DNA of 64,000 bases from a virus (IMGVR_UViG_3300020192_000001:3117-67116), one strand, 5' to 3'; shown: positions 37-50,414, counted from the first letter of the stretch. Numbers and translations: made by a program. Notes: generated by a model from the sequence alone, not told the origin.

Positions 37-423
37 TTATATCTTGTCCAAGGTGCGCTAGACAGCATGGGCGTGGCTCTCGCTGACCATCATCACGAAT
101 GGAGTGAAGGCGAGCGGGAAATCTACGATCAAGCAACTGAAATAATTAGGGCTTCGGCTGGCGGTTGTATGGAGACTGATTCGTTGGGCTCAAAGAAACA
201 TTCTTCTCTGATGCCTTTGATTGAATTGATCCTTCCGTGCGGCCTAATTTCAGGCCGATTACTCGCGTTGGGGTATTCTCCTTGGCGAGTTGCTTTAGTT
301 CACGGACATCTTGCGGTGTCCACTGCTTTCCGGTGTTGCGTGTGCTTTTGCTCATGTTTTGTTGTGGGTGAATGGCGCGATAGGCTTATTTCATTATCGA
401 ACGACAAGGTGAGATGCCGATGA
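1..423 (+). CDS. Antisense read-through ORF across cassette 1 (5' partial)
   Basis: Frame open from base 1 to TGA 421-423; reads AAC 400-402 as Asn; ATGA overlap with next gene. Confidence 0.4.
146..355 (-). CDS. Small bacterial-type hypothetical protein (canonical cassette gene)
   Basis: 69 aa, RNTGKQWT...[15 protein letters not shown] resembles a conserved small bacterial protein; lies wholly within one cassette. Confidence 0.65.
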   Translation of the reverse strand: MSKSTRNTGKQWTPQDVRELKQLAKENTPTRVIGLKLGRTEGSIQSKASEKNVSLSPTNQSPYNRQPKP

Positions 424-498
424 CCGCCGAAATTCCAGCTTTGATTCCACAACCCGGCCACCCGGCGGGCAGCGGTTATCTCGACCGCCTGGTTGGGC
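396..498 (-). repeat. attC-like site
   Basis: ATCGAAC gacaaggtgagatgccg...cggttatctcgaccgcctg GTTGGGC imperfect inverted repeat. Confidence 0.85.
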
Positions 499-950
499 CG
501 AAACGCTACTGGGCCACGCCGCCCGAAATGATGGAGGTTCTCAATGCGGAGTTCGAGTTCGACTACGATCCTTGTCCGCACCCAAGGCCGGAAGGCTTCG
601 ATGGCCTGCAAGTCCCGTGGGGGAAACGTAACTGGGTAAATCCGCCCTTCACTGGCGAACCGCGAGTGCCCGGAAAGCGAAAGCTCGGGCCGGTGGCGTG
701 GCTGAGAAAGGCCGTAGCTGAACGGGAAATTGGAAACATGACCGTGCTGATACTGCCGATCTACAACGTGCGGGCGATCTCAATGGCGGAGGACTTTGGG
801 GCGGAAATCCGATACTTCGGGAAGCCTCAATGGCTGGCACTTGAAGACGGGCAACCGAACCCGGCGCGGAAATCAGATTGGCATCCGTGCGTGCTCATTA
901 TTCTTCTGCCCAACACGGAGCTGACCAGCCCGAAGGGAGATCAATCGTGA
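420..950 (+). CDS. Phage DNA N6-adenine methyltransferase (Dam-like)
   Basis: WATP, FDYDPCP, DGL..PW and VNPPF motifs; starts in one attC and ends in the next (alternative start 414). Confidence 0.85.
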
Positions 951-1022
951 GCAACGAGATTGCACCCTCGCCGACGCCGCAAGACGCAAACCCGAAGGGT
1001 TTGGTCGAGCGGCTGGTTGGAA
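908..1022 (-). repeat. attC-like site
   Basis: GCCCAAC acggagctgacca...tggtcgagcggctg GTTGGAA. Confidence 0.85.
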
Positions 1023-1068
1023 TCCTGATGGGCACCAAACAATTCCCGCCGATAGGCGGCACTAAAAT

Positions 1069-1329
1069 ATGAACATCGACGGACTCAGACAAGATATGGA
1101 GATCGCATTCCAACGGGTCACTCAATACACCCTAATCGAAGACGAGGTTGAGGCCGTCTACCTCGGACTGACTCGACTGCGAGAAATTGAAAAAGCGGCG
1201 GAGATCGGAGACATCGCAGAAGTTCAGGTTTTGCTCGGAATCGAAAAAGCCCAACTGGATTCCAACGTCCGCGATCACTTGCCCCGGAAAGCTGGCACGC
1301 CCGATGCCGATACAAAGGAGAACGTATGA
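1069..1329 (+). CDS. Hypothetical cassette protein
   Basis: ATGA-coupled ORF ending in the attC loop. Confidence 0.6.
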   Translation: MNIDGLRQDMEIAFQRVTQYTLIEDEVEAVYLGLTRLREIEKAAEIGDIAEVQVLLGIEKAQLDSNVRDHLPRKAGTPDADTKENV

Positions 1330-1394
1330 GCATCCAGAAACCTTCGCATCGAAAGTGCCAGCTTGGAGGGGTTAAGTGGATCGCTCTGTTCGCT
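1260..1394 (-). repeat. attC-like site (AACGTCCGCGATCAC family)
   Basis: TTCCAAC gtccgcgatcactt...aagtggatcgctct GTTCGCT. Confidence 0.88.
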
Positions 1395-1595
1395 TTATTC
1401 GTTTGTGTGAATTGTGCAACCACTGCTCCCGGCCATCATGTTGATCGTGGCAACGCAGTCAGGCTTGTTAATGTAGCTTTCGCTGGATACCGCAATTTTC
1501 TTGTGGTTGGCAGCATGAAATGTCCATCGCCACTGGCGAGAGACATCGCGGTAAACAACGTAATACCCAATCGGGTTTGGAGTGCTCATATATGA
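1326..1595 (+). CDS. Antisense read-through ORF over the DUF1508-like gene
   Basis: Starts in the attC loop after AAGGAG; ATGA overlaps at both ends. Confidence 0.4.
   Translation: MSIQKPSHRKCQLGGVKWIALFALFVCVNCATTAPGHHVDRGNAVRLVNVAFAGYRNFLVVGSMKCPSPLARDIAVNNVIPNRVWSAHI
1395..1589 (-). CDS. YegP/DUF1508-family protein (canonical cassette gene)
   Basis: YRD..RQWRWTF.AANHKKIA.SSESY..K.DC...I pattern; stop abuts the attC R'' box. Confidence 0.8.
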   Translation of the reverse strand: MSTPNPIGYYVVYRDVSRQWRWTFHAANHKKIAVSSESYINKPDCVATINMMAGSSGCTIHTNE

Positions 1596-1828
1596 ATACT
1601 GTTAGTGTGTTAGAAAAATCACCGGCCTATCAAAGGGCGGATAACTCAGCGCGGATTTTGACCGTGATCGAAACAACGAACATGACACGCGGAAACGGCA
1701 CTGAAGAAGACCCTGTGCGAGTCGTAACGCAATATTGGACTCTCGATGGAACGCTTCTTGTCGAAGTGGACTCATATTCTTCTGCGAACGACAAAGTCAC
1801 CAACAAGGGGAGCGAAAATGAGCACTGA
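1592..1828 (+). CDS. Hypothetical phage protein
   Basis: VIETT..RGNGTEEDPVRVVTQYWTLDG pattern; coupled start. Confidence 0.65.
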   Translation: MNTVSVLEKSPAYQRADNSARILTVIETTNMTRGNGTEEDPVRVVTQYWTLDGTLLVEVDSYSSANDKVTNKGSENEH

Positions 1829-1882
1829 ATCCACGCCAGAAGTCCCGCGCTCCCCGCAGTTTGGTGGACTGCTTGGTTCGGC
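1783..1882 (-). repeat. attC-like site
   Basis: TGCGAAC gacaaagtcaccaac...tttggtggactgcttg GTTCGGC. Confidence 0.85.
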
Positions 1883-2177
1883 ATTTATCGTCGTGTTCGA
1901 TGATGAGCAAGGTTTGTGCGTGCCGCTTGGGTGGGACGGCGAATGCAGGGGGGCCATCTGCTGCAACCAAGGAAAAGTAGCCTTGTTCCCTGACCGGAAC
2001 TCTGCCCGTCGCGCAATCAACATATCGGCAAAGTTTGCCGCGCTCCGAAAATCGCAAGGCATTCCAGAAAACACCGACTTCTCGCCGGAGTGCCGAAAAT
2101 CAATCCGTGTCATGGAGTGTATGCCGAACGCCCAAGATGAGGGACAGCCGGAAAAAGGATGCCGCCATGCAAACTGA
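1818..2177 (+). CDS. Hypothetical cassette protein
   Basis: Start in attC loop after AAGGGGAG; ends in next attC. Confidence 0.6.
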   Translation: MSTESTPEVPRSPQFGGLLGSAFIVVFDDEQGLCVPLGWDGECRGAICCNQGKVALFPDRNSARRAINISAKFAALRKSQGIPENTDFSPECRKSIRVMECMPNAQDEGQPEKGCRHAN

Positions 2178-2215
2178 GCGCGTTCCGGCTGTTCCTCTCC
2201 ATCGCCTTGTTCGCG
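2123..2215 (-). repeat. attC-like site
   Basis: GCCGAAC gcccaagatgagggacagccggaa...ttccggctgttcctctccatcgcctt GTTCGCG. Confidence 0.85.
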
Positions 2216-2448
2216 GAATTTTTAAGGAGGTGCTTATGCAAACATGGCGGAGAAAGCCCGCCACCATGAGAGGTCCGATCCCTCTTGTGCCTCTCCAATC
2301 GCCACTAAGGCTCGGTGCCCGCCGGTGCACAAATGCAAGTCCTGCCTCGCGAGCAGGGCATCCGGCAATCTTTTCAGCGAACGCCACAGTGGAGCCATGC
2401 GGCCGGGATCCGCGCTCCGAAATCTCGCCAATCACCAAATCAAAATGA
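2167..2448 (+). CDS. Hypothetical short cassette ORF
   Basis: Starts in attC loop; AAC 2380 in frame; ATGA overlap at 2445. Confidence 0.35.
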   Translation: MQTERVPAVPLHRLVRGIFKEVLMQTWRRKPATMRGPIPLVPLQSPLRLGARRCTNASPASRAGHPAIFSANATVEPCGRDPRSEISPITKSK

Positions 2449-2497
2449 CAACTCCAATAAAAAGCGGGGCCGCATTGGCTCCCACGGCTGGTTCTGC
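2376..2497 (-). repeat. attC-like site
   Basis: AGCGAAC gccacagtggagccatgcggcc...ggccgcattggctcccacggctg GTTCTGC. Confidence 0.85.
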
Positions 2498-2861
2498 ATC
2501 TCTTGTCGAGCGGCAGGCGCAAGAACCGAAATTCGAGATGCCGGGGTGGGGTAACTCCATCACCGCCGGAGAACTCATCACATTCATGCTTCAGCGCGAA
2601 GGCACGCGTGAGGAGGCCATGGAAACGCTGGCGCAAACTCTGGCTGATCTCGGTATCAGCGGCGAAGAACTTGCTCACTGGCAGCGGAAGCCGGGAATCT
2701 GTCACGACTGCGGGGAAACCGATAATCGAACGCATCGCGAATGGGCCGCAAAGGCCGAGAGATTCCCGACGACTCCAATCGAAATGTATCGCGGATACCT
2801 GAAGTCCGATGTGCAGAACGTCCCAAGTCAGAAATCGCCACTCGGAAGCGGCGGAAAATAA
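2445..2861 (+). CDS. Hypothetical cassette protein (CxxC)
   Basis: Start in attC loop; CHDC motif; ends in next attC. Confidence 0.55.
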   Translation: MTTPIKSGAALAPTAGSASLVERQAQEPKFEMPGWGNSITAGELITFMLQREGTREEAMETLAQTLADLGISGEELAHWQRKPGICHDCGETDNRTHREWAAKAERFPTTPIEMYRGYLKSDVQNVPSQKSPLGSGGK

Positions 2862-2934: not shown

Positions 2935-3165
2935 TTTTCTCACGCGCAAGAGTCCTCTATCGCAAGCGATCTTATTGTGACCAGCGGCCACATTACCCCC
3001 GTGGATAAAATCACATTCTCGCCGGGTATCACCATAAACACCGTGACCGGCGAGGTGACGATCCCGAAAAACGTCGCAATCCCCGAAGCCGCACGCGCAT
3101 TCTGGGTCGCTGTGGCAAAGGCTTTCCCGGAAGTAAAAAAAGCCATGATGGAGGACGGGAAATGA
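2872..3165 (+). CDS. Putative exported protein; signal peptide encoded by the attC arm
   Basis: MKNNLIKTAAIVAIYCTAWFGFSHA-Q signal-peptide-like N-terminus. Confidence 0.6.
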   Translation: MKNNLIKTAAIVAIYCTAWFGFSHAQESSIASDLIVTSGHITPVDKITFSPGITINTVTGEVTIPKNVAIPEAARAFWVAVAKAFPEVKKAMMEDGK

Positions 3166-3169
3166 GTAA

Positions 3170-3290
3170 GCCGAACGCACAAGGCCACCAATCCCAGCCG
3201 GGAGCGAGCGTGGCCGCAAAAGAAGGGATTGAATCAAATGGAATCTAAAACTCTCGGCGGGCTGGGATTAGGTGCGCCGCTTTGTTCTGC
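3170..3290 (-). repeat. attC-like site
   Basis: GCCGAAC gcacaaggccaccaatcccagcc...ggctgggattaggtgcgccgcttt GTTCTGC. Confidence 0.85.
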
Positions 3291-3609
3291 TATCCTTCGG
3301 CTCACGCTGAAACGGAAGTGGTTCGACATGATCGCCAGCGGAGAGAAGCGCGAGGAATACCGAACCCCGAAAAGGTGGATTCTGTCGCGGCTGGAAGGGA
3401 AGGACTATGGATCGGTTGAATTTCGCAATGGCTATGGGAAAGACGTGCCCGTCGTTACGCTGGAATATCTCGGATGGAGCTATGGCACTGGCCGCCGCGA
3501 GTGGGGAGGCACCGGATACAAGGTTGCTGTGATCCATATGGGGCGGATTTTGAGTAAGCAGAACGCTGCCCATGAGCCACAGCGGCAGGAAGGCACCGAT
3601 GCCAACTGA
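3238..3609 (+). CDS. ASCH/PUA-like domain protein
   Basis: LTLKRKWFDMIASGEKREEYR and F.NGY motifs. Confidence 0.8.
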   Translation: MESKTLGGLGLGAPLCSAILRLTLKRKWFDMIASGEKREEYRTPKRWILSRLEGKDYGSVEFRNGYGKDVPVVTLEYLGWSYGTGRREWGGTGYKVAVIHMGRILSKQNAAHEPQRQEGTDAN

Positions 3610-3646
3610 CCGCGTTCCCGATGTTGGCTCGATGGGCTTGTTCGCG
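3558..3646 (-). repeat. attC-like site
   Basis: GCAGAAC gctgcccatgagcca...tggctcgatgggctt GTTCGCG. Confidence 0.85.
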
Positions 3647-3883
3647 GATGATGGTGATGTAATGATGGAGTTCTCGGGAGGGCGTCTGGACGGAATGAAA
3701 GTTCTGATTTCAGAATGGCCGCAAGACCTCGCTTGGCCGGGAACTGAGGTCATGGATAAACCGTCGGGGCAGATATATCGATATCATGCCACGGCATCAG
3801 TCCGCTACCCCATTTACACACATAGGCCGGATGATTCAGCGAACGCCGAGTCCAGCAACGGCGAAAAGGAGGCACGACCATGA
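3599..3883 (+). CDS. Hypothetical cassette protein
   Basis: FSGGRLDG motif; attC-to-attC ORF. Confidence 0.6.
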   Translation: MPTDRVPDVGSMGLFADDGDVMMEFSGGRLDGMKVLISEWPQDLAWPGTEVMDKPSGQIYRYHATASVRYPIYTHRPDDSANAESSNGEKEARP

Positions 3884-3923
3884 GTGAGCCGTTGCCGCCG
3901 CTTGCTGGGACGCTTGGTTCCGC
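3838..3923 (-). repeat. attC-like site (GAGTCCAGCAACGGCG family)
   Basis: AGCGAAC gccgagtccagcaacggcg-AAAAGGAGG..ATGA..-cgccgcttgctgggacgcttg GTTCCGC; near copies at 6918, 47732, 50375. Confidence 0.88.
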
Positions 3924-4164
3924 GGATGGTCACGCGGTAAGGTGGGCTACGCGGAGTAAGGGGCGTGCGCCGTTCCAAGAACCTCGATGGACCAAATGGC
4001 ACGCTACCAGCGATGATTGCCAGACTCGGTGTGGGCTGCCTATCATAATAGCCACGTCCGCCGCATTCACTCCTGAAACCGATGATGAGAGCAGGGTGGA
4101 TTGCCATGGCTGCTTGCAGCAGCTTAACGCTGAGCACTCCCACCCCGCGACAACCGATGATTGA
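3880..4164 (+). CDS. Hypothetical Cys/His-rich cassette protein
   Basis: KWH...TRCG...VDC..C putative zinc finger. Confidence 0.6.
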   Translation: MSEPLPPLAGTLGSADGHAVRWATRSKGRAPFQEPRWTKWHATSDDCQTRCGLPIIIATSAAFTPETDDESRVDCHGCLQQLNAEHSHPATTDD

Positions 4165-4209
4165 AGCACTCCCCTGCGACCCGCGTTCGGCTGCATCCGC
4201 TGGTTATAC
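4122..4209 (-). repeat. attC-like site (degenerate arms)
   Basis: GCTTAAC...GTTATAC; weak hairpin, but GTTATAC pairs with GTATAAC at 4404. Confidence 0.6.
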
Positions 4210-4393
4210 GGCCTTGACTCCGCAGCAGCTAAAGGCGCGCGCGATAATCGCCGGAGACCTATATCGCGAGGGCCGGATCGAACGCACAGAATGCTTCCGC
4301 TTGGAGGTGGACTCTGCGGTAGGGAGAGACTCCGGCCCGGTGAAGTTCAAGGAGAACCGTGACTATGCCGAATGGCTGGAGGAAAACTCGTAA
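4157..4393 (+). CDS. Hypothetical cassette protein
   Basis: Start within attC; TAATG overlap with a short leader ORF. Confidence 0.55.
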   Translation: MIEALPCDPRSAASAGYTALTPQQLKARAIIAGDLYREGRIERTECFRLEVDSAVGRDSGPVKFKENRDYAEWLEENS

Positions 4394-4403
4394 TGGGAAG
4401 GCC

Positions 4404-4533
4404 GTATAACTACCAAGTCACCAATTCCGCCAACCCTAAACCTTGAATACTAAAATGGACAATAAAACAACGAATGATACCCCCGAAGCCCAAACTCCCG
4501 ACTTGGCGGAATTGGGTGGACTGCCTGTTCGGA
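4404..4533 (-). repeat. attC-like site
   Basis: GTATAAC taccaagtcaccaattccgccaa...ttggcggaattgggtggactgcct GTTCGGA. Confidence 0.85.
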
Positions 4534-4757
4534 TTCTTTGGGCCGACCAACTCCAATGTGAAAATATGTCGCTGCGTAACGAGAACGCCGCTCTGCGCGA
4601 TGCGATAAATGCGTTGCGCGACTTCGTCGCTGGCAAAAGACACGATAACAGGAGCATTTCTGAAATTCTCAATGGGGCCATGGGTATTCCGAACGAACCA
4701 GTGGAGCTACCGCCGAATAGTGGCTCCAAATCCGAGAATGGCGTTGTCGGCGGTTAG
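4455..4757 (+). CDS. Hypothetical coiled-coil cassette protein
   Basis: attC-to-attC ORF; LRNENAALRDAI heptads. Confidence 0.55.
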   Translation: MDNKTTNDTPEAQTPDLAELGGLPVRILWADQLQCENMSLRNENAALRDAINALRDFVAGKRHDNRSISEILNGAMGIPNEPVELPPNSGSKSENGVVGG

Positions 4758-4776
4758 CTCGCACGCCTTGTTCATC
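4688..4776 (-). repeat. attC-like site
   Basis: TCCGAAC gaaccagtggagctaccgccga...tcggcggttagctcgcacgcctt GTTCATC. Confidence 0.85.
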
Positions 4777-5032: not shown

Positions 5033-5165
5033 GATGAACGCACCGATCACCGATCACTCACCCCTGACCACTCAAAACCATGAATAAAATTACGACTCCC
5101 CCGAAGCCAGAAACCTCGACCCCAGCCTCGACAGGTGAGGGATTTGGTGGATCGGATTGTTCGGC
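5033..5165 (-). repeat. attC-like site
   Basis: GATGAAC gcaccgatcaccga...ttggtggatcggatt GTTCGGC. Confidence 0.85.
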
Positions 5166-5361
5166 TGATTTGGCGATACTCAGGAAAGAATGCGAACATC
5201 GCATCGAAGTGTGCCGGGTAAATATCCTAGAAGCTGGGTTTGCTGTTCGGCACATGAGCCCGCGCCGCGCCGCCGAGCAACTGGATCAATGTGAGCATTA
5301 CGCAAGGTTAGCGGCTTACGACGCTCGCGAACTGACACGTAGGCTTCTGCCGGACGCATGA
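5080..5361 (+). CDS. Hypothetical cassette protein
   Basis: Start in attC loop; ATGA overlap with the MTase. Confidence 0.55.
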   Translation: MNKITTPPKPETSTPASTGEGFGGSDCSADLAILRKECEHRIEVCRVNILEAGFAVRHMSPRRAAEQLDQCEHYARLAAYDARELTRRLLPDA

Positions 5362-5449
5362 GTGCTGGCACCGACATGAGCGCGAAAGACGCCGCCTTCA
5401 CGCTGGACAGTGCCGCTCATGGCGGTTGTCCAGCCACGACTTGTTATGC
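5349..5449 (-). repeat. attC-like site with mutated core (AAC>GAC)
   Basis: GCCGGAC...catgagcg...cgctcatg...GTTATGC; GCCGAAC expected from the GTTCGGC at 5159. Confidence 0.7.
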
Positions 5450-6221
5450 CTCTTCTGAGTTGCCGAAAACCTCCGAATCCATGCTTGCTCTGATGGGCAA
5501 ATACGCGCTTCCGCATGGCTACTGGTATTCGCCACGGGTGATGCTCTATCGTGGAGACTGCGAGGAAATCGCGCCTATGCTCAGTAAAGTGGTCGATGCT
5601 GTGATCTCTGATCCTCCTTATGGAATCGCGGTGAACACCCGCAACGCCACTCGCTCAAATACTCCACCACACTCAAGAACAGTCGTGGCATCCAAGAACT
5701 GGCAACCCGTGGAAGGTGACGATAAAGACTTCGATCCGGCGACGTGGTTAAAGTGGCAAAGGGTTGTCCTCTGGGGTGCGAATAACTACGCAAGCAGCCT
5801 GCCTGATTCACCGTCATGGCTCGCATGGAACAAGCGGACACCAGAAGGCTTCAAGAAGTCGCAAGTGGAACTCGCGTGGATGCGTGGCGCGGGGAAATGC
5901 TCCTATCACTTCGATCATCAATGGCACGGAGTATGCCGTGATTCTGAACAGGCCGAAGGAAGCCTCCATCCCACGCAAAAGCCGGTCGCGCTTATGGCAT
6001 GGTGCATGGAAAAGGCGAAAGTTCCCGATGGCGGACTCGTCCTTGATCCGTTCATGGGGAGCGGAAGCACGGGCATTGCAGCCATCCGCACTGGACGGCG
6101 ATTCATCGGCATCGAGAAAGATCCGATCCACTTCAAAACGGCGCTGGAACGCATCCAGCAAGAACTCGCCCAGGGGGATCTTTTTCTTGGGCATAACGCA
6201 AAGAGCACCTATGACGCCTGA
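5358..6221 (+). CDS. DNA N4/N6 methyltransferase (beta class)
   Basis: LYRGDC, SDPPY, HPTQKP and LDPFMGSGST motifs. Confidence 0.92.
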   Translation: MSAGTDMSAKDAAFTLDSAAHGGCPATTCYASSELPKTSESMLALMGKYALPHGYWYSPRVMLYRGDCEEIAPMLSKVVDAVISDPPYGIAVNTRNATRSNTPPHSRTVVASKNWQPVEGDDKDFDPATWLKWQRVVLWGANNYASSLPDSPSWLAWNKRTPEGFKKSQVELAWMRGAGKCSYHFDHQWHGVCRDSEQAEGSLHPTQKPVALMAWCMEKAKVPDGGLVLDPFMGSGSTGIAAIRTGRRFIGIEKDPIHFKTALERIQQELAQGDLFLGHNAKSTYDA

Positions 6222-6311
6222 CACCGCCACCCCGCTGCAAATGGAGGCCCATAACGTCGCCCCCGCTCCGACTCTCAACGGGGCGGCATTAGGTGACTCG
6301 CCTTGTTGGAC
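6191..6311 (-). repeat. attC-like site
   Basis: GCATAAC gcaaagagcacctatg...cattaggtgactcgcctt GTTGGAC. Confidence 0.85.
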
Positions 6312-6963
6312 ATCTTCTTGCGGGCGCGTGACGCTGTATCATGGTCGCTGGCAAGACCTGCTGCCGCTGCCTGTGGACGCTATAATCACAGATCAGCCTT
6401 ACGGCACTGGATGGATACGCGGAGGCGGGAAAAAGGAAGGTGAGTTCAAGCGCAGGACGGAGAAAGCAGAATGGGACATCTTTGATGTGTCGTGGATGGA
6501 ACGCGCTCCCGGCATCGTGGCGGCATTCTGCCCGACGCAAGGCGTATGGGAAATGTGCCTGCGGATGGAAACTCCCCACGTCCTGAAATACCTGAAAACG
6601 AATCCGGCACCATTCGGCGCGGATCGTGAGCCGATAGTTAGCAGCCGCCCGCTGAGTGGATCGTGGGAGAAGGAAGCCTACAACGGTGACAACCCGCTGC
6701 ATCCATGCCAGAAGCCGCTGCCGCTCATGGGCTGGCTCATCCACGAACTGACCACGGAAGGCCAAACGGTCTGTGATCCGTTCATGGGAAGCGCAAGCAC
6801 TGGAATCGCCTGCATCCGCGCAAACCGCCGCTTCGTGGGTATCGAACAAGACCAGACGCACTACGCCACGGCCCTCGCCCGAATCAAAACCGAACTCGGA
6901 CAGGGGGATTTATTCTTGTCCAACGTTGAGTCCAGCAACGGCGAAAAGGAGGCCCGGCCATGA
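6211..6963 (+). CDS. DNA N4/N6 methyltransferase (beta class, DQPY variant)
   Basis: TDQPY, HPCQKP and CDPFMGSAST motifs; start in attC loop. Confidence 0.88.
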   Translation: MTPDTATPLQMEAHNVAPAPTLNGAALGDSPCWTSSCGRVTLYHGRWQDLLPLPVDAIITDQPYGTGWIRGGGKKEGEFKRRTEKAEWDIFDVSWMERAPGIVAAFCPTQGVWEMCLRMETPHVLKYLKTNPAPFGADREPIVSSRPLSGSWEKEAYNGDNPLHPCQKPLPLMGWLIHELTTEGQTVCDPFMGSASTGIACIRANRRFVGIEQDQTHYATALARIKTELGQGDLFLSNVESSNGEKEARP

Positions 6964-7003
6964 GTGAGACGTTGCCGCCGTTTGCTGCGACGTTTGGTTG
7001 TGC
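6918..7003 (-). repeat. attC-like site (GAGTCCAGCAACGGCG family)
   Basis: GTCCAAC...GTTGTGC, near copy of 3838-3923. Confidence 0.88.
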
Positions 7004-7025: not shown

Positions 7026-7316
7026 ATGAAAACATACAAACCAGAAAGCAGCTTCCAAGCTACCAGCGACGCATCGATGGTCTATAGCCTCCGACATACC
7101 GGATGGCAAAAAGGCAAGCAAGTGTGGTCCAATGATGTAGCCATATCAATCACCGCTCACCACCTGACGGACGAGGAGCGGGCCGACATCGCCCTAACCA
7201 TTCAGGGCGCGATGAACGCAAAATATCTGCACAACGTCCGCGATCACCAGCAGCCGCTTGCTTCTGGCGCGGGGGATGCAGGCAACCATGCAAGCCAAGG
7301 GGAGGAGTCACGATGA
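7026..7316 (+). CDS. Hypothetical cassette protein
   Basis: ORF ends within the attC loop with ATGA overlap. Confidence 0.55.
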   Translation: MKTYKPESSFQATSDASMVYSLRHTGWQKGKQVWSNDVAISITAHHLTDEERADIALTIQGAMNAKYLHNVRDHQQPLASGAGDAGNHASQGEESR

Positions 7317-7393
7317 AACTCCCCAGCAAGAAACGCAGCCCCCGTGCCAGAAGTGCCGCAGGCACGGCTGTTTGGTGGATCGCTCTGTTGGCT
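7229..7393 (-). repeat. Long attC-like site (AACGTCCGCGATCAC family)
   Basis: GCACAAC...GTTGGCT, 165 bp; near copy of 38475 and 38975. Confidence 0.88.
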
Positions 7394-37558: not shown

Positions 37559-37897
37559 ATGCAAACAGTAACAGTATATGGTGCAAGTGATGACCTCATT
37601 GAAATCGAGGGGGACATCCGAGACGAAATCAGCGCAGACAGTGACATGCCGTGCAAGCTGGCATTCTCGGATGGGACTGTCCTTAACGTGGTATATGACG
37701 AAGATGGATGCTGGAGAGTAACCCGCATCGCCGCAGGAACGGCCGCAATGCAGAAGATCGAAGCCGAAGGGTCGGACACTGACAACTATTCCGACCGAGT
37801 TACTCTCAATGGTGACATCAAATGGGTGGTGGCAGGGTACTGTATTACAAAAGTTGAACCAACCAGCGGCGTGGCTGAGATGGAGGCACGACCATGA
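37559..37897 (+). CDS. Conserved-looking phage hypothetical protein
   Basis: VTVYGASDDLIEIEGDI motif. Confidence 0.7.
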   Translation: MQTVTVYGASDDLIEIEGDIRDEISADSDMPCKLAFSDGTVLNVVYDEDGCWRVTRIAAGTAAMQKIEAEGSDTDNYSDRVTLNGDIKWVVAGYCITKVEPTSGVAEMEARP

Positions 37898-38562
37898 GTG
37901 CGCCGTTGCCGACGCATGGTGCGGTGGTCGAAATCAATATGACGGACGGCTACATCAACACGCTCTTCAAGGCTACTAATTTTGGTCCTCAGGGAGAAAC
38001 TCCGAGAGGCCGACGCGGACTGATGGTCGAGTGTGTCCTGAAATATGCCAGCCTCTACGTAGACGGCAGCACGATAACCAATATATGCAAAAAGGCCGGA
38101 CTCATTGGCGATTGCGGCGCAACGCACGCTGGGATTCGCTGGGCATTCAAGCAAATGTACCGGAGCGGTGGAACAACGATCATAGAGCGACTCCATCCGC
38201 CGAACGTCGAGTCTTGGCAGCCCCACCCGAACCACAATAAATCTATGTCACAAAATCAAACGCCTGAATCACCGCAACCCGTAGCCGAAGCTGAGAGCTT
38301 GGTGGGGGTTGCCAACGACGTCTTGTTAGCACTAAGGATTCGCTCTTTGATAGCGGACAAGGAAATGGTCACGGCGACGGCTAATTTGGACCTTGCAAGA
38401 GGCGGGGAATGGCGACTCGACTATTCTGCATGGCAGGGGCAACTCAACGTGGAGATCGACGCTTTGTTTTCTGAGGCTAACGTCCGCGATCACCGGCAGC
38501 CGCTTGCTTCTGGCGCGGGGGATGCGGGCACCCATGCAATCCAGGGGGAGGAGTCACGATGA
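37894..38562 (+). CDS. Chimeric ORF reading through an attC (internal ATG 38245)
   Basis: No stop in attC 38199-38331, so two cassette ORFs are fused. Confidence 0.5.
   Translation: MSAPLPTHGAVVEINMTDGYINTLFKATNFGPQGETPRGRRGLMVECVLKYASLYVDGSTITNICKKAGLIGDCGATHAGIRWAFKQMYRSGGTTIIERLHPPNVESWQPHPNHNKSMSQNQTPESPQPVAEAESLVGVANDVLLALRIRSLIADKEMVTATANLDLARGGEWRLDYSAWQGQLNVEIDALFSEANVRDHRQPLASGAGDAGTHAIQGEESR
38199..38331 (-). repeat. attC-like site
   Basis: GCCGAAC gtcgagtcttggcagccccacc...ggtgggggttgccaacgacgtctt GTTAGCA. Confidence 0.85.
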
Positions 38563-38638
38563 ATCTCCCCGACAAGAAAGCATCCCCCGTGCCAGAAGTG
38601 CCGAAGGCACGGCTGTTTGGTGCATCGCTTTGTTCGCG
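38475..38638 (-). repeat. Long attC-like site (AACGTCCGCGATCAC family)
   Basis: GGCTAAC...GTTCGCG; near-identical to 38975-39138. Confidence 0.9.
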
Positions 38639-39062
38639 TTTTTCCTCTTCATTCACACGCAATCTCCCGCTTGCCATCTGGATAATATACCCATCGTTCC
38701 CAATCCGTTGGTTTCGGCCCTCGCTGCACAATGTAGAGAAACTTACCGTTGATCGCCTTTGCGATCTCTGCATTGACGGTGTGTATCCATTCGATATAGC
38801 GAGGAATAATCTCTCTCGCTGGCTTCCCCGCCCATTCTATCTTTTGAGCCTGAACCTGATTCCGACTCTTAAGATACTGAGAAACATCGAAATGAATTGT
38901 GACGGAAACGCCGCCACCAAAGTCGCATTGAAATGTGAGAATATCGTTCATGTTGAAAGCGCGACTATATTTTCAGCGAACGTCCGCGATCACCAGCAGC
39001 CGCCTGCTTCTGGCGCGGGGGATGCAGGCACCCATGCAATCCAGGGGGAGGAGTCACGATGA
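38559..39062 (+). CDS. Antisense read-through ORF
   Basis: attC loop to attC loop, stop-free opposite 38649-38951. Confidence 0.4.
   Translation: MNLPDKKASPVPEVPKARLFGASLCSRFSSSFTRNLPLAIWIIYPSFPIRWFRPSLHNVEKLTVDRLCDLCIDGVYPFDIARNNLSRWLPRPFYLLSLNLIPTLKILRNIEMNCDGNAATKVALKCENIVHVESATIFSANVRDHQQPPASGAGDAGTHAIQGEESR
38649..38951 (-). CDS. Hypothetical protein (canonical cassette gene)
   Basis: 100 aa filling the cassette; stop just before attC. Confidence 0.65.
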   Translation of the reverse strand: MNDILTFQCDFGGGVSVTIHFDVSQYLKSRNQVQAQKIEWAGKPAREIIPRYIEWIHTVNAEIAKAINGKFLYIVQRGPKPTDWERWVYYPDGKREIACE

Positions 39063-39138
39063 ATCTCCCCGACAAGAAAGCATCCCCCGTGCCAGAAGTG
39101 CCGAAGGCACGGCTGTTTGGTGGATCGCTCTGTTCGCA
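38975..39138 (-). repeat. Long attC-like site (AACGTCCGCGATCAC family)
   Basis: AGCGAAC...GTTCGCA. Confidence 0.9.
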
Positions 39139-39757
39139 TTTATTCTCGTTATTCTTCGATTGTTTTGATGTGGGCACCGTGAGGTCTCTTAGGAATAGCC
39201 GAGACAATATCGTGTATAGTGGGCTTCCCCCAGAGATGGTTAAGGAAGTGGACATGCGATCCGCCGATGAAATGGCCATCATCGCGACTGTCACGGGTAT
39301 CAAACGTAAGAAGGTGCCATATATCAGGTTTGTGAGCGCACACAAAGAAATGAAAAATGGCTCTTCCAGAATCCTTGGTAAGTTGATTGTAAAGCTGGCT
39401 AAGATCGTGCGGTGTTCCGATCTTCTCGCGAGCATTCACCCAAAGATGGTCAACGTTATTGTCCTCGAAGACGGGTGTGTGGAGATATCCGAGAGACCCG
39501 CACCCAATAATCATATGGGATATGTCCGAGTGTCGGAGTGTAAGTTGATGACAGAACTTCATCGCTTCGCGCTTCTTGGTTATGGCGAAAAGCTCCGTAA
39601 GATTCTCGGGAGGGCGATTTTTGTAAAACTCGAAAAATGCATCAATCACGGAAATTTGGATGACCTTATATTTTCAGCGAACGTCCCCGGTCAGGAATCC
39701 CCGCCTGCTTCTGGCGTGGGAGATGCAGGCAACCAATCACAAAAACCAACCAAATAA
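39059..39757 (+). CDS. Antisense read-through ORF
   Basis: 232 stop-free codons opposite 39149-39649. Confidence 0.4.
   Translation: MNLPDKKASPVPEVPKARLFGGSLCSHLFSLFFDCFDVGTVRSLRNSRDNIVYSGLPPEMVKEVDMRSADEMAIIATVTGIKRKKVPYIRFVSAHKEMKNGSSRILGKLIVKLAKIVRCSDLLASIHPKMVNVIVLEDGCVEISERPAPNNHMGYVRVSECKLMTELHRFALLGYGEKLRKILGRAIFVKLEKCINHGNLDDLIFSANVPGQESPPASGVGDAGNQSQKPTK
39149..39649 (-). CDS. Hypothetical protein (canonical cassette gene)
   Basis: 166 aa; WHLLTFD.RD...HF.GGSHVHFLNHLW; lower GC. Confidence 0.7.
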   Translation of the reverse strand: MIDAFFEFYKNRPPENLTELFAITKKREAMKFCHQLTLRHSDISHMIIGCGSLGYLHTPVFEDNNVDHLWVNAREKIGTPHDLSQLYNQLTKDSGRAIFHFFVCAHKPDIWHLLTFDTRDSRDDGHFIGGSHVHFLNHLWGKPTIHDIVSAIPKRPHGAHIKTIEE

Positions 39758-39843
39758 TAAAACATCATGAAAAACGAAAATAGCGCATCTCCCATGCCAG
39801 AAGTCCCGGAGGGACGGGGATTTGCTGGACCGGTCTGTTCGCG
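39676..39843 (-). repeat. Long attC-like site (related family)
   Basis: AGCGAAC gtccccggtcaggaatccccg...cggggatttgctggaccggtct GTTCGCG, with compensatory changes relative to 38975. Confidence 0.88.
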
Positions 39844-40102
39844 CCTCATTTTTTTACTTCCTGAAAGTGGTAGTGATACAATGGAGCACTCTGGCAATCG
39901 GCAAACTCTCTACAGTCAATTATCTCGTTGGTATCCTCTGCTTTCAGACTTATATGGCAGTTGGGAAAAATATCCAGAAGCACGGAAGGGGTGGGAAAAA
40001 AGACTGAATTTTCCCCTTGAAGCCGGAATTCTCCAATGGATTTCGGAAGGCCGTCCACGTAAAGAGTGGCCTCGCGAAGATGAACTAAGGGCTCGGCGAT
40101 GA
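39767..40102 (+). CDS. Antisense read-through ORF
   Basis: Starts in attC loop; ATGA relay at 40099. Confidence 0.35.
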   Translation: MKNENSASPMPEVPEGRGFAGPVCSRLIFLLPESGSDTMEHSGNRQTLYSQLSRWYPLLSDLYGSWEKYPEARKGWEKRLNFPLEAGILQWISEGRPRKEWPREDELRARR

Positions 40103-40136
40103 CTAAGTTGCACAATTCAGAATCGAATTCATTCAT
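39846..40136 (-). CDS. Hypothetical protein (canonical cassette gene)
   Basis: 96 aa filling the cassette; stop abuts attC. Confidence 0.65.
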   Translation of the reverse strand: MNEFDSELCNLVIAEPLVHLREATLYVDGLPKSIGEFRLQGENSVFFPTPSVLLDIFPNCHISLKAEDTNEIIDCREFADCQSAPLYHYHFQEVKK

Positions 40137-40848
40137 GGTTAATCAGGGGGTTATTATTTCTGCGAACGTCCGCGATCACCGGCACCTACCCGCTGGCGCG
40201 ACGGGTGCCGGGAGCGAAGCGACCAAGCACTCGGCGTGCCAGCGGGTAGGTGTTCGGTGGATCGCATTGTTGGCATTTTTATTTTATGTGCCGCTCAATC
40301 TCGCCCAGGGCAGCCAAAACAGCCTTGTGCTTAAATGTGACGTTCTCTCCCACCGATTCCAAAAGAACGGAGTCGAAATTGGTGTCGCTCATCACTCTGA
40401 AATCAAGGGAGCGGTAATCAACCCAAGCCTGAATAATCTCCTTCTGGCGCGACTTCGAGAACAAGGGGATACTGGTGAAGACGGCCTTCTTCAAATCATC
40501 GAAAGTAGCTTTGTAGGACGTTTCTCCGTCCTCGGAGGATTCCACCAAATCTCTTATCATTTCGATCTGGGAGCGGACTCCGTTGATGGAACGCCTACGG
40601 TCCAAATGACAGGCAAACCAGAACCCGAGCATGGACGAAGCGAGCCATCCAATCGGGATAATAATATCCTTGGCGGTGATAAAGCAGGCGAGGAGTGGTG
40701 GAAGGATCATACAATCTGGTATTCTTGGTATCCCGCAGTCTTCTTTGCGTTGTGCATCGCGTATCTAAAAATCACTGACGAACTCCGCTGGCAGTGGAAG
40801 TGGAATTGGGGGCCATGGTGGAGAAAGCGTTTTTCTTCTGCCAACTAA
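40099..40848 (+). CDS. Antisense read-through ORF across attC and last cassette
   Basis: Reads AAC 40165 and AAC 40843 in frame; stops 4 bp before ATG 40853. Confidence 0.4.
   Translation: MTKLHNSESNSFMVNQGVIISANVRDHRHLPAGATGAGSEATKHSACQRVGVRWIALLAFLFYVPLNLAQGSQNSLVLKCDVLSHRFQKNGVEIGVAHHSEIKGAVINPSLNNLLLARLREQGDTGEDGLLQIIESSFVGRFSVLGGFHQISYHFDLGADSVDGTPTVQMTGKPEPEHGRSEPSNRDNNILGGDKAGEEWWKDHTIWYSWYPAVFFALCIAYLKITDELRWQWKWNWGPWWRKRFSSAN
40161..40275 (-). repeat. attC-like site (AACGTCCGCGATCAC family)
   Basis: TGCGAAC gtccgcgatcaccggcacctacccgctggc...gccagcgggtaggtgttcggtggatcgcatt GTTGGCA. Confidence 0.9.
40279..40710 (-). CDS. Membrane-anchored hypothetical protein (canonical cassette gene)
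   Basis: N-terminal TM then helical domain; stop abuts attC. Confidence 0.65.
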   Translation of the reverse strand: MILPPLLACFITAKDIIIPIGWLASSMLGFWFACHLDRRRSINGVRSQIEMIRDLVESSEDGETSYKATFDDLKKAVFTSIPLFSKSRQKEIIQAWVDYRSLDFRVMSDTNFDSVLLESVGENVTFKHKAVLAALGEIERHIK

Positions 40849-47469: not shown

Positions 47470-47777
47470 CGCCCAGCCCCAAAATAATCATGGACACGGA
47501 ATCCGCGACTTGTTCTCCATCTTTGCGTTGGGGTAGGACTTTGCCCACCCAAAACGGATATTTCTGGTATCGGGAACATGTTCAGCACCGTGCGGTAATC
47601 TACGATGTTTCGGCCACGGCTCGCTTTGGCTTTGTTCAGAAATGGGACGGAACCACGAAGGACATCAAAGAAATGCACGGATGGTGGGCTGGGCCAATCC
47701 TCAAGCCCGATTCCCCTCCTCTTCCTTCTTTGGAGAACGTCCAGTCCAGCAACGGCGAAAAGGAGTCGCGACCATGA
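47466..47777 (+). CDS. Hypothetical cassette protein
   Basis: PTQNGYFWYR...WAGPI..P; bounded by GTTCTCC 47512 / GGAGAAC 47732. Confidence 0.6.
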   Translation: MTPSPKIIMDTESATCSPSLRWGRTLPTQNGYFWYREHVQHRAVIYDVSATARFGFVQKWDGTTKDIKEMHGWWAGPILKPDSPPLPSLENVQSSNGEKESRP

Positions 47778-47817
47778 GTGAGCCGTTGCCGCCGTTTGCT
47801 GCGACGCCTGGTTGGCC
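47732..47817 (-). repeat. attC-like site (GAGTCCAGCAACGGCG family)
   Basis: GGAGAAC...GTTGGCC. Confidence 0.88.
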
Positions 47818-47886: not shown

Positions 47887-47932
47887 CTCACGTGTCGGAG
47901 GGAATAAATCCTTCGGCGAAACCAAAAACACC

Positions 47933-48424: not shown

Positions 48425-48453
48425 ACCAACCAACAACCAGAACCAAAAATACC

Positions 48454-48759
48454 ATGATCATAAACACAACACCCCACGCAATTAACCTACCTGGACTCAC
48501 CGTACAGCCCTCGGGCAACGCAGTTCGAGTTTCCGTCACCCTCTCCGAGGCAGGCACCCACGACGGCATCAGCCTTGTCCGGGGCGCATACGGAGAAGTC
48601 ACCGGCCTCCCGGCAGAACAAGATGGCGTCCTCTACATCGTCTCTGCGCTGGTTCGCGCCGCCTTGCCAACCCGCAGAGACTTGGCGAGCCCCGCCAAGC
48701 TCACCCGCGATGACAAGGGCAACATAACAGGGTGTGAGGCACTGGAGGTCAATTCGTGA
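48454..48759 (+). CDS. Conserved-looking phage hypothetical protein
   Basis: IINTTPHAI, GLP...DGVLYIVS.LV, R.DL.SP and RD..G.I.GC..L motifs. Confidence 0.75.
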   Translation: MIINTTPHAINLPGLTVQPSGNAVRVSVTLSEAGTHDGISLVRGAYGEVTGLPAEQDGVLYIVSALVRAALPTRRDLASPAKLTRDDKGNITGCEALEVNS

Positions 48760-49361
48760 GAATTTCAAACTTAGGAGACAAGTTGGATGAAATCCTCGCG
48801 GCCTTGGCCGTTGCAAACCCGCGTCTGGCAGCGACCTGCCCGCCAGTGGCGTGGGCAGAGGACTCGGGGGATCGCTGGTCAATCGGCATTGACTGGTCGT
48901 ACGGGGAGCGGCCAAACGCGAAGCTGCAACTTGAGACGTTCTTAAAAAACGCTCCCGCTCCCGCTCCCGCAATCGCGGCAAAAGTGCGCGATTTTAGTTT
49001 TGCCGATCTTCGCCCACCCACGGCGGCAGACGAAGCGGCAAAGAAGGCTAAGATAGATTCAGCCATGGCGGCAAGGGCAGTCAAAGAAGCCGCAAAAAGG
49101 GAGTTTCTTGCGGTCCTTGAAACAGCAAAAGAGAAGGGGATTGTCCGGTTCTGCGGCAGTAAACTATCCGGCGACGGACATATCATCGTTTGTGGGGTGC
49201 GTGTATCAGACTCCGTGTGGTCAACGTCCGAACCTTACCGCGATGAGGAAAGATACGGGGCGCGAACAGGCATGGCGAGAAGCGACGTGTCTTACAGTCG
49301 AGAAGAGCATCCGCTAATCAGCGCGGATGAGCTACAGGCAATCATCGCATCTGAGAAATGA
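48756..49361 (+). CDS. Hypothetical protein
   Basis: GTGA-coupled ORF. Confidence 0.55.
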   Translation: MRISNLGDKLDEILAALAVANPRLAATCPPVAWAEDSGDRWSIGIDWSYGERPNAKLQLETFLKNAPAPAPAIAAKVRDFSFADLRPPTAADEAAKKAKIDSAMAARAVKEAAKREFLAVLETAKEKGIVRFCGSKLSGDGHIIVCGVRVSDSVWSTSEPYRDEERYGARTGMARSDVSYSREEHPLISADELQAIIASEK

Positions 49362-49537
49362 CCGCCCGCGAAATGCAGGCCCGCGCCACCGCGAAACGGT
49401 GGGGCGGCATGACGGCGGAAGAAAAGTCCGCCGAAATGTCCCGCGTCCGAAAAACCGGGATCAAAAACTCTGCCAAAAAGAAAGGCTCCACTCGGCGGCC
49501 CAACGACAAGGTCAGAGACGGCGGAGGTGAGGCGTGA
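49358..49537 (+). CDS. Small basic protein (absent from ORF track)
   Basis: MTAREMQARATAKRWGGMTAEEKSAEM...RRPNDKVRDGGGEA; ends in attC. Confidence 0.55.
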   Translation: MTAREMQARATAKRWGGMTAEEKSAEMSRVRKTGIKNSAKKKGSTRRPNDKVRDGGGEA

Positions 49538-49584
49538 TCTCGCGTGCAGCGTTGCCCGCCGTTCTCTGGACCGTCTTGTTGGAC
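49498..49584 (-). repeat. attC-like site (most canonical example)
   Basis: Minus strand reads GTCCAACAAGACGGTCCAGAGAACGGCGG...CCGCCGTCTCTGACCTTGTCGTTGGGC. Confidence 0.9.
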
Positions 49585-49595
49585 ATTTTTTTGTG

Positions 49596-50414
49596 ATGCA
49601 ATACCAAGATACACTCCCAAGCGTAATCCCGAAGCGGCTCCTGTGCTGGTTCTCGTGCGGTGCCGCGTCTGCGGTGGCTGCCAAAATGGCTATCGCAATG
49701 CACAAGGGGCCAGAACCTGTCGAAGTGCTTTATTGCGAACTTGCGAACGAGCATCCCGATAACGAGAGATTCCGTGGCGATGTTGAGAAATGGCTCGGGC
49801 ATCCAATCAAGGGGCTCCGATCTGCGGAGTATCCGACGATGGACATCTATCATGTGTTCAAGCGCGAGCAGTATATCAGCGGGATCGCCGGAGCAACCTG
49901 CACAAAGCATCTCAAGAGGGAGGTGCGGATGGCTTACGAAAGCCCCTCCGACATTCATGTGTTTGGATACACGGTAGATGAAGGTAGCCGCATCAGCCAG
50001 TTCGAGCGCGAGAATCCGAACATGAGGCTGCAATGGGTGCTCCGCGACCTGGGCATCACAAAGCAGGACTGCTACGCCGTGGTGAAAGATGCCGGAATCG
50101 AACTGCCTGCGATGTATCGGATGGGATACAACAACAACTGCATCGGTTGTGTGAAGGGCGGCGCGGGCTATTGGAACAAAATCAGGCGCGACTTCCCGGA
50201 CCACTTTCAAAAGGCAGCATTGGAATCGCGGCGGCTTGGTGTGCGACTCGTAAAGCACGCCGGGGAAAGATGCTATCTCGACGAACTGCCGCCGAACGCA
50301 GGGAACTACGCTTTCGAGGGTGACATAGACTGCGGGCCGCAATGCGTGCAGCCCACGAGCGACGATCTTGATATGTCCAACGCCGAGTCCAGCAACGGCG
50401 AGGAGGGCCGTTGA
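49596..50414 (+). CDS. PAPS reductase-family (adenine nucleotide alpha-hydrolase) protein
   Basis: WFSCGAASAVA, EHPDN.RF, CT..LK and P.MY.MGY.NNCIGCVKGG.GYW motifs. Confidence 0.8.
   Translation: MQYQDTLPSVIPKRLLCWFSCGAASAVAAKMAIAMHKGPEPVEVLYCELANEHPDNERFRGDVEKWLGHPIKGLRSAEYPTMDIYHVFKREQYISGIAGATCTKHLKREVRMAYESPSDIHVFGYTVDEGSRISQFERENPNMRLQWVLRDLGITKQDCYAVVKDAGIELPAMYRMGYNNNCIGCVKGGAGYWNKIRRDFPDHFQKAALESRRLGVRLVKHAGERCYLDELPPNAGNYAFEGDIDCGPQCVQPTSDDLDMSNAESSNGEEGR

Follow-up and report, generated by a model that had tools for sequence, protein, structure and literature searches.

A fixed codon phase at the AAC cores of attC-like hairpin arrays in an uncultured phage genome

Why should the same three letters, AAC, at the foot of one hairpin after another, always be read as an asparagine codon by the genes that run into them? 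The question is raised by IMGVR_UViG_3300020192_000001, a 67,116-bp virus record of IMG/VR, of which bases 3117-67116 were analysed (the window, 64,000 nucleotides, whose coordinates are used below unless the genome is named). The record has 127-bp direct terminal repeats and is rated complete, and nearly all genes of the phage are on the + strand. The hairpins resemble the attC sites of integrons. Integrons are bacterial devices, in which promoterless genes precede their recombination site and are expressed according to their distance from one promoter. A first-pass annotation, made from the sequence alone, had proposed that AAC is an in-frame codon at the junctions of this locus, and that most genes take their C-terminal tail and stop from whichever attC follows. 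The answer that we consider probable is that the locus consists of three integrase-less cassette arrays (clusters of attC sites lacking integron integrases, CALINs) whose + coding strand is the attC bottom strand, with genes that run backwards and a fixed phase of AAC.

Codon phase of the AAC cores

A constrained DNA fold scan over all AAC...GTT pairs, 2,112 in number, ranks the true sites at the top. It gives 26 hairpins in three arrays, at 400-8354 (array 1), 38203-40269 (array 2) and 47736-50454, and all attC-type hairpins of the three arrays share one orientation. With a hairpin whose core is GAC, the weak hairpin 4126/4203, three hairpins upstream of the window and the bare cores 8540 and 40843, the genome holds 33 cores. 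In what follows, frame 0 is the frame in which AAC is read as an Asn codon, ORF stands for open reading frame, and R1 is a covariance model trained on 12 of the 26 hairpins. The sites, all on the + strand, are:

1..36, +: attC right arm cut by the window start; GTT 30, AAC 94 nt before the window; match of the right-end hidden Markov model (HMM); pair 3022/3146 in genome coordinates, frame 0 open 169 codons
396..498, +: attC; AAC 400, GTT 492; R1 62.6 bits (training sequence); tail NDKVRCR, stop 421-423 on ATGA, start 420; frame 0 open at least 133 codons, antisense to minus-strand gene 146-355
908..1022, +: attC; AAC 912, GTT 1016; R1 29.5 bits, not in training; Dam-like gene 414-950 crosses the AAC and stops on GTGA
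1260..1394, +: attC; AAC 1264, GTT 1388; gene 1069-1329 reads through; ATGA 1326; R1 19.6 bits
1783..1882, +: attC; AAC 1787, GTT 1876; gene 1592-1828 reads through; 11-nt stop/start overlap
2123..2215, +: attC; AAC 2127, GTT 2209; gene 1818-2177 reads through
2376..2497, +: attC; AAC 2380, GTT 2491; ATGA 2445; R1 30.3 bits, not in training; frame 0 open 133 codons, weak coding score
2813..2934, +: attC; AAC 2817, GTT 2928; gene 2475-2861 reads through; next gene start 2872
3170..3290, +: attC; AAC 3174, GTT 3284; R1 36.6 bits, not in training
3558..3646, +: attC; AAC 3562, GTT 3640; gene 3238-3609 reads through
3838..3923, +: attC, family D2; AAC 3842, GTT 3917; gene 3599-3883 reads through; tail NAESSNGEKEARP; ATGA 3880
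4122..4209, +: weak or decayed attC, found by flank rule and eye; AAC 4126, GTT 4203; ORF 3880-4164 reads the AAC in frame
4404..4533, +: attC; AAC 4408, GTT 4527; R1 only 12.6 bits, E 0.53
4688..4776, +: attC; AAC 4692, GTT 4770; gene 4455-4757 reads through
5033..5165, +: attC; AAC 5037, GTT 5159; entered by a relay ORF
5349..5449, +: attC with mutated core; GAC 5353, GTT 5443; R1 12.6 bits, E 0.52; ORF 5080-5361 reads Asp in frame 0; ATGA 5358
6191..6311, +: attC; AAC 6195, GTT 6305; N6_N4 methylase gene 5358-6221 reads through
6918..7003, +: attC; AAC 6922, GTT 6997; methylase gene 6211-6963 reads through; tail NVESSNGEKEARP
7229..7393, +: attC; AAC 7233, GTT 7387; gene 7026-7316 reads through; ATGA 7313
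7928..8026, +: attC; AAC 7932, GTT 8020
8235..8360, +: attC; AAC 8239, GTT 8354; R1 29.5 bits, not in training
8540..8542, +: bare AAC core without hairpin; end of array 1, attI-like position; read in frame by ORF 8261-8554
37858..37926, +: decayed attC remnant lacking R boxes, where gene 37559-37897 meets gene 37924-38562; family D2, 62% identity; partial R1 match, model positions 13-76, E 0.28
38199..38331, +: attC; AAC 38203, GTT 38325; ORF 37924-38562 spans the whole hairpin in frame 0 with no stop
38475..38638, +: attC; AAC 38479, GTT 38632; ATGA 38559
38975..39138, +: attC; AAC 38979, GTT 39132; frame 0 open 166 codons, better-scoring ORF on the minus strand
39676..39843, +: attC; AAC 39680, GTT 39837; frame 0 open 241 codons over a minus-strand ORF; R1 15.3 bits, E 0.11
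40161..40275, +: attC; AAC 40165, GTT 40269; repeat I9
40843..40845, +: bare AAC core; end of array 2; in frame, TAA directly 3'
47732..47817, +: attC; AAC 47736, GTT 47811; gene 47541-47777 reads through; tail NVQSSNGEKESRP; R1 87.6 bits
49498..49584, +: attC; AAC 49502, GTT 49578; gene 49358-49537 reads through
50375..50460, +: attC; AAC 50379, GTT 50454; PAPS-reductase-like gene 49593-50414 reads through

Frame 0 is the longest open upstream frame of the + strand at 32 of the 33 cores, and at 28 of them its open stretch is 40 codons or longer. The exception is core 49502, where frame 2 is open for 62 codons versus 49 in frame 0, the called gene 49358-49537 being in frame 0. The cores divide into 27 that are read through, all in frame 0, and six relay cores described below; genes crossing in frame 1 or 2 number zero. 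The in-frame AAC is thus confirmed for this phage genome, and with it the 15 codon contexts that the annotation had listed: LSN-DK at 400, LPN-TE at 912, DSN-VR at 1264, SAN-DK at 1787, MPN-AQ at 2127, VQN-VP at 2817, KQN-AA at 3562, SAN-AE at 3842, GHN-AK at 6195, LSN-VE at 6922, LHN-VR at 7233, EAN-VR at 38479, LEN-VQ at 47736, RPN-DK at 49502 and MSN-AE at 50379. The mutated GAC core at 5353 is likewise read in frame, as the Asp that had been noted. The decayed remnant at 37858-37926 has no core in register, and the AACs near it are out of frame.

What proportion should be expected? The annotation had taken one third, which is too low: among 32 non-array genes of the same phage, 296 of 651 AAC are in frame, and the proper null is 0.455. 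Under this null, the chance of the observed phase is about 1e-6 for the 17 of the 27 read-through cores that are crossed by a + gene with a positive score on a crude coding measure (6.9e-7 for 18 cores), and 1.3e-9 for 26, the copies being not fully independent.

Six genes stop just before or on a core, at 3174, 4408, 5037, 7932, 8239 and 40165. At each of them a short ORF takes over, its ATG lying in frame 0 within -12 to +8 nt of the main stop (6/6, versus 0/6 in frame 1 and 0/6 in frame 2); the background chance of such an ATG is 0.119 per site, for a -12..+8 interval chosen after seeing the data. The five leader ATGs that the annotation had picked by eye (3162, 4393, 5034, 7899 and 8230) are all in frame 0 with their AAC, and a sixth, ATG 40099, joins them. 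The stop and the start are arranged as ATGA twice and TAATG once, with a 4-nt gap twice and an 11-nt overlap once:

3162..3248, +: relay ORF; ATG overlaps the stop of gene 2872-3165 (ATGA); AAC 3174; ends 11 nt into the next gene
4393..4446, +: relay ORF; ATG overlaps the TAA of gene 4157-4393; AAC 4408 in frame 0
5034..5087, +: relay ORF; enters AAC 5037; main gene 4808-5029 ends 8 nt earlier
7899..8000, +: relay ORF; ATG 4 nt past the stop of ORF 7313-7894; AAC 7932 in frame 0
8230..8277, +: relay ORF; AAC 8239 in frame 0; the TAA of main gene 8058-8240 overlaps the core
40099..40848, +: relay ORF; begins on ATGA at the stop of ORF 39767-40102; AAC 40165 in frame 0; continues through hairpin and last cassette to one codon beyond bare core 40843

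Beyond the core, frame 0 terminates at most of the 26 sites either on ATGA or GTGA or where it overlaps the following start by 8 or 11 nt; in frames 1 and 2 the arm contains no closing stops. On the other side of the hairpin no such rule holds: among the sites of the 26 that have a clear gene, the frame of the downstream gene at the partner GTT is mixed, about 5/6/9, as is expected if loop, 3' arm and gene body form one cassette.

Hairpins and the cassette unit

Are these hairpins attC sites, and if so, on which strand? All 26 are imperfect hairpins, closed by an R box with AAC...GTT. The layout seen in 24 of the 26 folds is an AAC/GTT box, an internal loop, a stem of 3-6 bp, a bulge on the 3' arm and a second stem; the bulge, a single base that follows the 3-6 bp L-box stem, is G in 14 folds, C in 7, A in 2 and T in 1. 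A second bulge on the 3' arm is a single T in 12 folds, and a loop with an extra T in 4; the stem between the two bulges measures 4-6 bp in 18 of 24. In attC sites the bottom strand, which is the one recombined, carries an extrahelical G (L'') and a T about 6 bp further, as described by Nivina et al. 2016 (PMC5027507). It is the folds of the + strand that have extrahelical bases in this arrangement, which argues that the coding strand of the phage is the attC bottom strand and, consequently, that its genes are antisense to normal cassettes. The usual layout, with a gene on the top strand and its attC downstream, is not found here, and the starts lie in the loops. G adjoins AAC in 15 of the 26 left cores. 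The hairpins are 86-168 nt long, some of them above the published 57-141 bp, and their loops vary widely.

Sequence models agree with the folds. With an HMM of the right end, 24 copies are detected in the window and 25 genome-wide, on the + strand only. R1 recovers 12 of the 14 hairpins on which it was not trained at E <= 0.009, the other two having E 0.11 and 0.53, and it additionally picks up the GAC-core site (E 0.52) and the decayed remnant (E 0.28). It places every site on the + strand (scored in reverse, these sites reach 17.4 bits at most, versus up to 87.6), and RNAalifold identifies compensatory changes in 8 of the 13 consensus pairs. Two other approaches were rejected: exact and loosely scored inverted-repeat scans miss the sites because of the bulges, and an HMM of the left end drifted toward a single subfamily.

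A hallmark of integron cassettes is that the crossover splits the R box, so that its two halves land at the two ends of the cassette. The four bases after the GTT of each hairpin were compared with the four before the AAC of the following one. They are complementary at 4/4 positions in 20 cases, 3/4 in 9 and 2/4 in 1 (n=30). The mean match across cassettes is 3.63 of 4, versus 1.77 within a hairpin's own flanks (n=31) and 1.66 with shuffled partners, and the observed total is reached in 0 of 100,000 partner shuffles. This flank rule also singles out the GAC-core site 5353/5443, both of whose flanks match 4/4, the weak site 4126/4203, and the bare cores 8540 (4/4 with the GTT flank of 8354) and 40843 (4/4). 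For the weak site, which R1 misses at E <= 10, agreement is 4/4 between the GTT flank and the next core, and only 2/4 between the left flank and the GTT flank that precedes it. The mobile unit consequently runs from AA^C to AA^C, with ^ marking the crossover, which lies in the left AAC on the + strand; any gene reading across an AAC ends inside the next cassette.

We can thus sketch how such a cassette would work. A gene would begin with a ribosome-binding site (RBS) and an ATG in the loop of a hairpin, continue through the 3' arm and then the gene body, and cross the AA^C boundary into the hairpin of the next cassette, where it would find its last 2-30 codons and a stop, the latter usually overlapping the next start, as ATGA or by 8 or 11 nt. 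Cutting would be done by an integron integrase of the host or of another element, since the genome of the phage has none. With the crossover always after the first two codon positions of Asn, any cassette may follow any other, and the upstream gene keeps its designed stop. The tails are presumably translated, and the overlaps of stop and start would provide translational coupling.

Tails, cassette orders and competing explanations

If tails belong to the following cassette, homologues of a gene should part company at the asparagine, as the annotation had anticipated, and in two families they do. For gene 3238-3609 there are 168 relatives at E <= 1e-8; in the alignment of the best 120 with the gene itself (121 rows), a conserved C-terminal motif is followed by the boundary Asn in 84 rows; 12 rows stop short of that column, and in 25 it is occupied by a different residue. 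Past the Asn come 0-40 residues, without similarity between rows. For methylase 6211-6963, with 220 relatives at E <= 1e-10, the best 120 divide into 43 with the boundary Asn, 7 with an Asn a few residues later, 37 with no tail, and 33 with a tail without that Asn. The same tails are moreover seen on unrelated bodies: a few tail beginnings recur across both protein families and the window, and P0121, which is 92% identical to gene 3238-3609, bears the tail that here follows gene 3599-3883, variants of which stand here on genes 6211-6963, 47541-47777 and 49593-50414. Close homologues differ in their N-terminal leaders too, as far as the residues encoded at GTT; fast drift of hairpin sequence must therefore contribute, and divergence of tails alone is no proof of swapping.

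Evidence of a second kind comes from the sequencing runs in which array 1 is present. There are 13 of them, 12 from microbial mats and one, with a small share, from freshwater sediment; the source sample may be among them. For four other runs, from microbial mats, Logan contigs were placed on positions 1-8700, the region of array 1, where stretches without contig cover in some runs carry no evidential weight. Among the 12 joints listed, 5 link core to core, 4 have only their right side at a core or 2 nt before it, and 3 lie inside hairpin repeats. The core-to-core joints are 1786->7932 (in run X6), 3560->3841, 7931->8239, 8539->7932 and 8244->3568. Their two sides have only AAC, AACA or GAACGC in common (3-6 letters, the last with one mismatch), so that a k-mer assembler could not have built them from repeats.

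Contigs of runs X3 and X4 combine, at the depth of the main genotype, into the order ...3560^3841...7931^8239...8539^7932...8238^3562..., which puts cassettes 7932-8238 and 3562-3841 beside the bare core 8540, at the end of the array, as excision and reinsertion at an attI-like end would do. Contigs of X4 and X5 keep the gene body and then, after AACG at 3565, continue into a different attC; others diverge just upstream of a core, at 1264 (X6) and at 3840. This natural deletion and reordering supports the view that cassettes are reshuffled at their AAC cores, and we argue that the shared tails, together with the contig joints, are what favours swapping over the drift of unconstrained attC sites. 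The proposal that genes take tail and stop from the following attC is supported by DNA: flank rule, contig joints and tail divergence agree on it.

Could the attC sites be true and the cassettes mobile, and the fixed frame still be a passive by-product of common descent, a conserved Asn and constraints on the R box, rather than a selected interface? This is the alternative that survives best, and we nevertheless think it unlikely. Several attCs are near-copies of one another (families D2-D4), the boundary Asn is a conserved column in two protein families, 45.5% of the AAC in ordinary genes are already in frame, and drift alone could make tails diverge. However, the phase rule spans unrelated genes and unrelated attC families, the ATG that follows an early stop is in frame 0 in every case and never in the other frames, and the pattern of stops is one-sided: the arm has none that close frames 1 and 2, frame 0 is stopped on the next start at most sites, and the GTT side obeys no rule.

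A second alternative keeps the exchanges and dispenses with the integrase: cassettes would be exchanged by RecT-type homologous recombination of the phage over the hairpin arms, the likeness to attC being convergent. The phage does encode a RecT-like annealing protein, two exonucleases and a RusA-like resolvase, besides a primase/helicase and a helicase, and no tyrosine recombinase; some contig breakpoints do lie inside or just after hairpins. We judge this explanation improbable all the same, since the core joints link hairpins of different families that share 3-6 letters only, the complementarity of flanks across cassettes needs a fixed cut within the R box of a folded strand, and both bulges are placed where, according to PMC5027507, integron integrases need them.

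Still less probable, to the point of being nearly negligible, is that the hairpins act in RNA only, as processing signals, terminators or regulators of translation, with no recombination of DNA. The + strand is the mRNA strand, starts and RBS lie in loops, and the folds of the + strand are the more stable (summed energy -627 versus -602 kcal/mol for the - strand). But the complementarity of cassette ends and the alternative orders joined at AAC are properties of DNA, and a search of Rfam returned tRNA only, with no family matching the hairpins; as a sole explanation it is contradicted. An added RNA role beside recombination may exist.

An integrase-less phage, its relatives and its other features

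We return to the reading of the three arrays as CALINs with backward genes. A six-frame search of the whole 67-kb genome for tyrosine recombinases gave 0 matches to PF00589 and TIGR02249, the controls being matched; the phage is therefore a carrier of CALINs, and not of complete integrons. This absence of an integrase gene is the first of several points that weigh against the reading. The extended consensus is fully matched by few of the 26 hairpins, RYYYAAC by 5 left cores and GTTRRRY by 4 right ones, and the internal loop present in nearly all folds is mostly 2-5 nt, where the attC spacers described in PMC5027507 have 5-6 nt per arm. Coding support is weak or absent for ten of the 27 read-through frames, several of which are antisense to better-scoring minus-strand ORFs, and the runs that contain the stretch include 0 on record as RNA. 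Excision and reinsertion between A and C is seen from contigs only (5 of 12 joints core-to-core, and the order in X3 and X4), which are assembled contigs, not reads; the other 7 of the 12 joints are not core-to-core, and contigs also break after GTT+6 at 1882 (three runs) and at 5361 and 6229, which are not AAC cores, so not every rearrangement obeys a simple core rule.

A further point comes from outside. R1 finds 7 sites in 4 of the 5 other viral records that were searched whole. At 5 of these external sites, open frames of 104-225 codons read across the core in frame 0, and one site has a relay, with a stop followed by ATG-CCG-AAC. The exception, which counts against the reading, is core 1862 of record G004, a truncated site crossed in frame 2 by an ORF of 308 codons that stops 5 nt later, on ATGA. 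The rule that the annotation had called universal is thus borne out in part: it extends to most sites of a few related records, and its universality is limited to these and to the present genome. With this replication at hand, the notion that the phase is chance, or the product of ORFs chosen by eye, can be put aside as scarcely credible: six cases do depend on short ORFs, and in ten the frame is poorly supported as coding, but frame 0 is longest at 32 of 33 cores, the probability for the 17 supported genes is near 1e-6, and 5 of 7 sites repeat the pattern in four viral records.

How do backward CALINs compare with what is known? Phage CALINs with DNA methyltransferase cassettes, and with sites that IntI1 can use, were described by Qi et al. 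2023 (PMC9892861). The present arrays are like them in having attC without intI, in their methyltransferase cassettes and in the presumed use of bacterial integron integrases. They differ in scale, the 17 CALINs of Qi et al. having two or few attC each against about 31 sites in three arrays, and in direction: all genes here read the bottom strand, whereas those cassettes are oriented as in bacterial arrays, or in "divergent directions" in one phage. The main text of Qi et al. makes no mention of reversed genes, crossover-crossing genes or codon phase; its supplementary tables may differ. With the VCRs (Vibrio cholerae repeats) as described in PMC5027507, the hairpins share a long homogeneous attC, large variable loops, flanks belonging to neighbouring cassettes, and the extrahelical G and T on the bottom strand; unlike them, VCR arrays have top-strand genes that normally end before or within their own attC, and come with intI and attI.

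By analogy, the nearest functional precedent would be ORF-11 of attI1. As described in PMC8876359, ORF-11 and ORF-18 of the class 1 attI1 span the crossover, obtain an in-phase stop from the inserted cassette and, by termination and reinitiation, help the next gene. That case differs in involving one site and one leader peptide in normal orientation; here the arrangement would concern every attC, full-length genes and reversed cassettes. Nivina et al. 2020 (PMC7439510) likewise wrote attC structure into protein-coding sequence, but their sites are synthetic and engineered; those of the phage are natural and have a fixed phase. Full-text literature searches returned no published statement of a codon-phase rule at attC sites.

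We also advance a broader conjecture, tentatively, as somewhat more apt to fail than to hold. Uncultured phages may possess an integron grammar of their own, in which cassettes are backward, the loop supplies RBS, start and stop, and a standard codon phase makes the cassettes interchangeable in-frame modules of a ribosome-coupled chain; the + frame would be kept open over cassettes with minus-strand genes for the passage of ribosomes, and a borrowed host integrase would reshuffle anti-defence genes between infections. The small early genes of the phage include one Dam-like methylase and two N6_N4 methylases. A phage of lytic type appears to run integron grammar in reverse for accessory genes, at least three DNA methylases among them. 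A convention of codon phase would make each junction translationally safe and would account for a fast shuffling of early genes without loss of expression. It predicts chimeric C-terminal tails in many metagenomic proteins, and suggests how such arrays may be recognised: by an in-phase AAC, a stop that falls on the following start, and complementarity of flanks from one cassette to the next. A further question is which integrase serves an integrase-less phage.

In searches for relatives, the metallopeptidase query led to one distant locus, without arrays, and the terminase query to two partial contigs, without arrays, its tblastn search against GenBank phages giving no match; the primase query in the metagenome collection gave one 3.8-kb contig. 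The loci of a methylase alignment (18 of them, 32-53% identical) contained no convincing arrays among the 11 scanned. A degenerate pattern of 18 letters was rejected, its 109 viral and at least 120 genomic stretches being almost all chance; applied to the pattern loci, R1 detected 0 sites among 100 from the genome set and, among 100 viral ones, 5 sites spread over 3 loci.

One related viral fragment, G007 (L037), has an attC of the same family at 3456-3558 and, on the same strand at 3898-4149, an Xer/IntI-like remnant: the C-terminus of a tyrosine recombinase, broken by stops (PF00589 E 1e-15, TIGR02249 E 2e-11, XerC E 3e-13). It lies about 340 nt downstream of the hairpin, which would be the place of intI in the flipped view. 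A metagenomic methylase, P0004, joins the N-terminal leader of gene 5358-6221 to a body of the 6211-6963 type, and the two parts meet at the residues whose codons come directly after the GTT of the GAC-core hairpin (window 5358-5460). Duplicated sequence is found 3' of two attC sites, at 47789-47863 and 50432-50506, with 92% identity over 75 nt and divergence thereafter.

In four places, 1-423, 38559-39062, 39059-39757 and 40099-40848, frame 0 of the + strand is open for 133-250 codons and the better-supported genes are on the minus strand. Minus gene 146-355 is a regulator of phrog_323 (E 8e-9), and the minus ORFs 38649-38951, 39149-39649 and 40279-40710 are supported by coding score only; the ORFs of array 2, on either strand, have no Pfam or PHROGs match. 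In three such cassettes the codons of frame 0 are aligned antisense to those of the minus gene, which lacks TTA, CTA and TCA; codon usage gives this a chance of P 0.62, 0.19 and 0.11.

Elsewhere in the window, a tRNA at 22891-22965 (Rfam RF00005, 54.5 bits) sits within the well-scoring ORF 22014-23174, and ORF 29118-30788 contains five tandem units of 36 nt at 29338-29553. A single ORF of some 3,100 codons occupies 54062-63355 and contains repeats at a spacing of about 500 nt (58719/59217, 59160/59718). Finally, ORF 9819-10409 is a phage glycosyltransferase with a DXD sugar-binding region, its top Pfam rows being PF12919 and PF04488.

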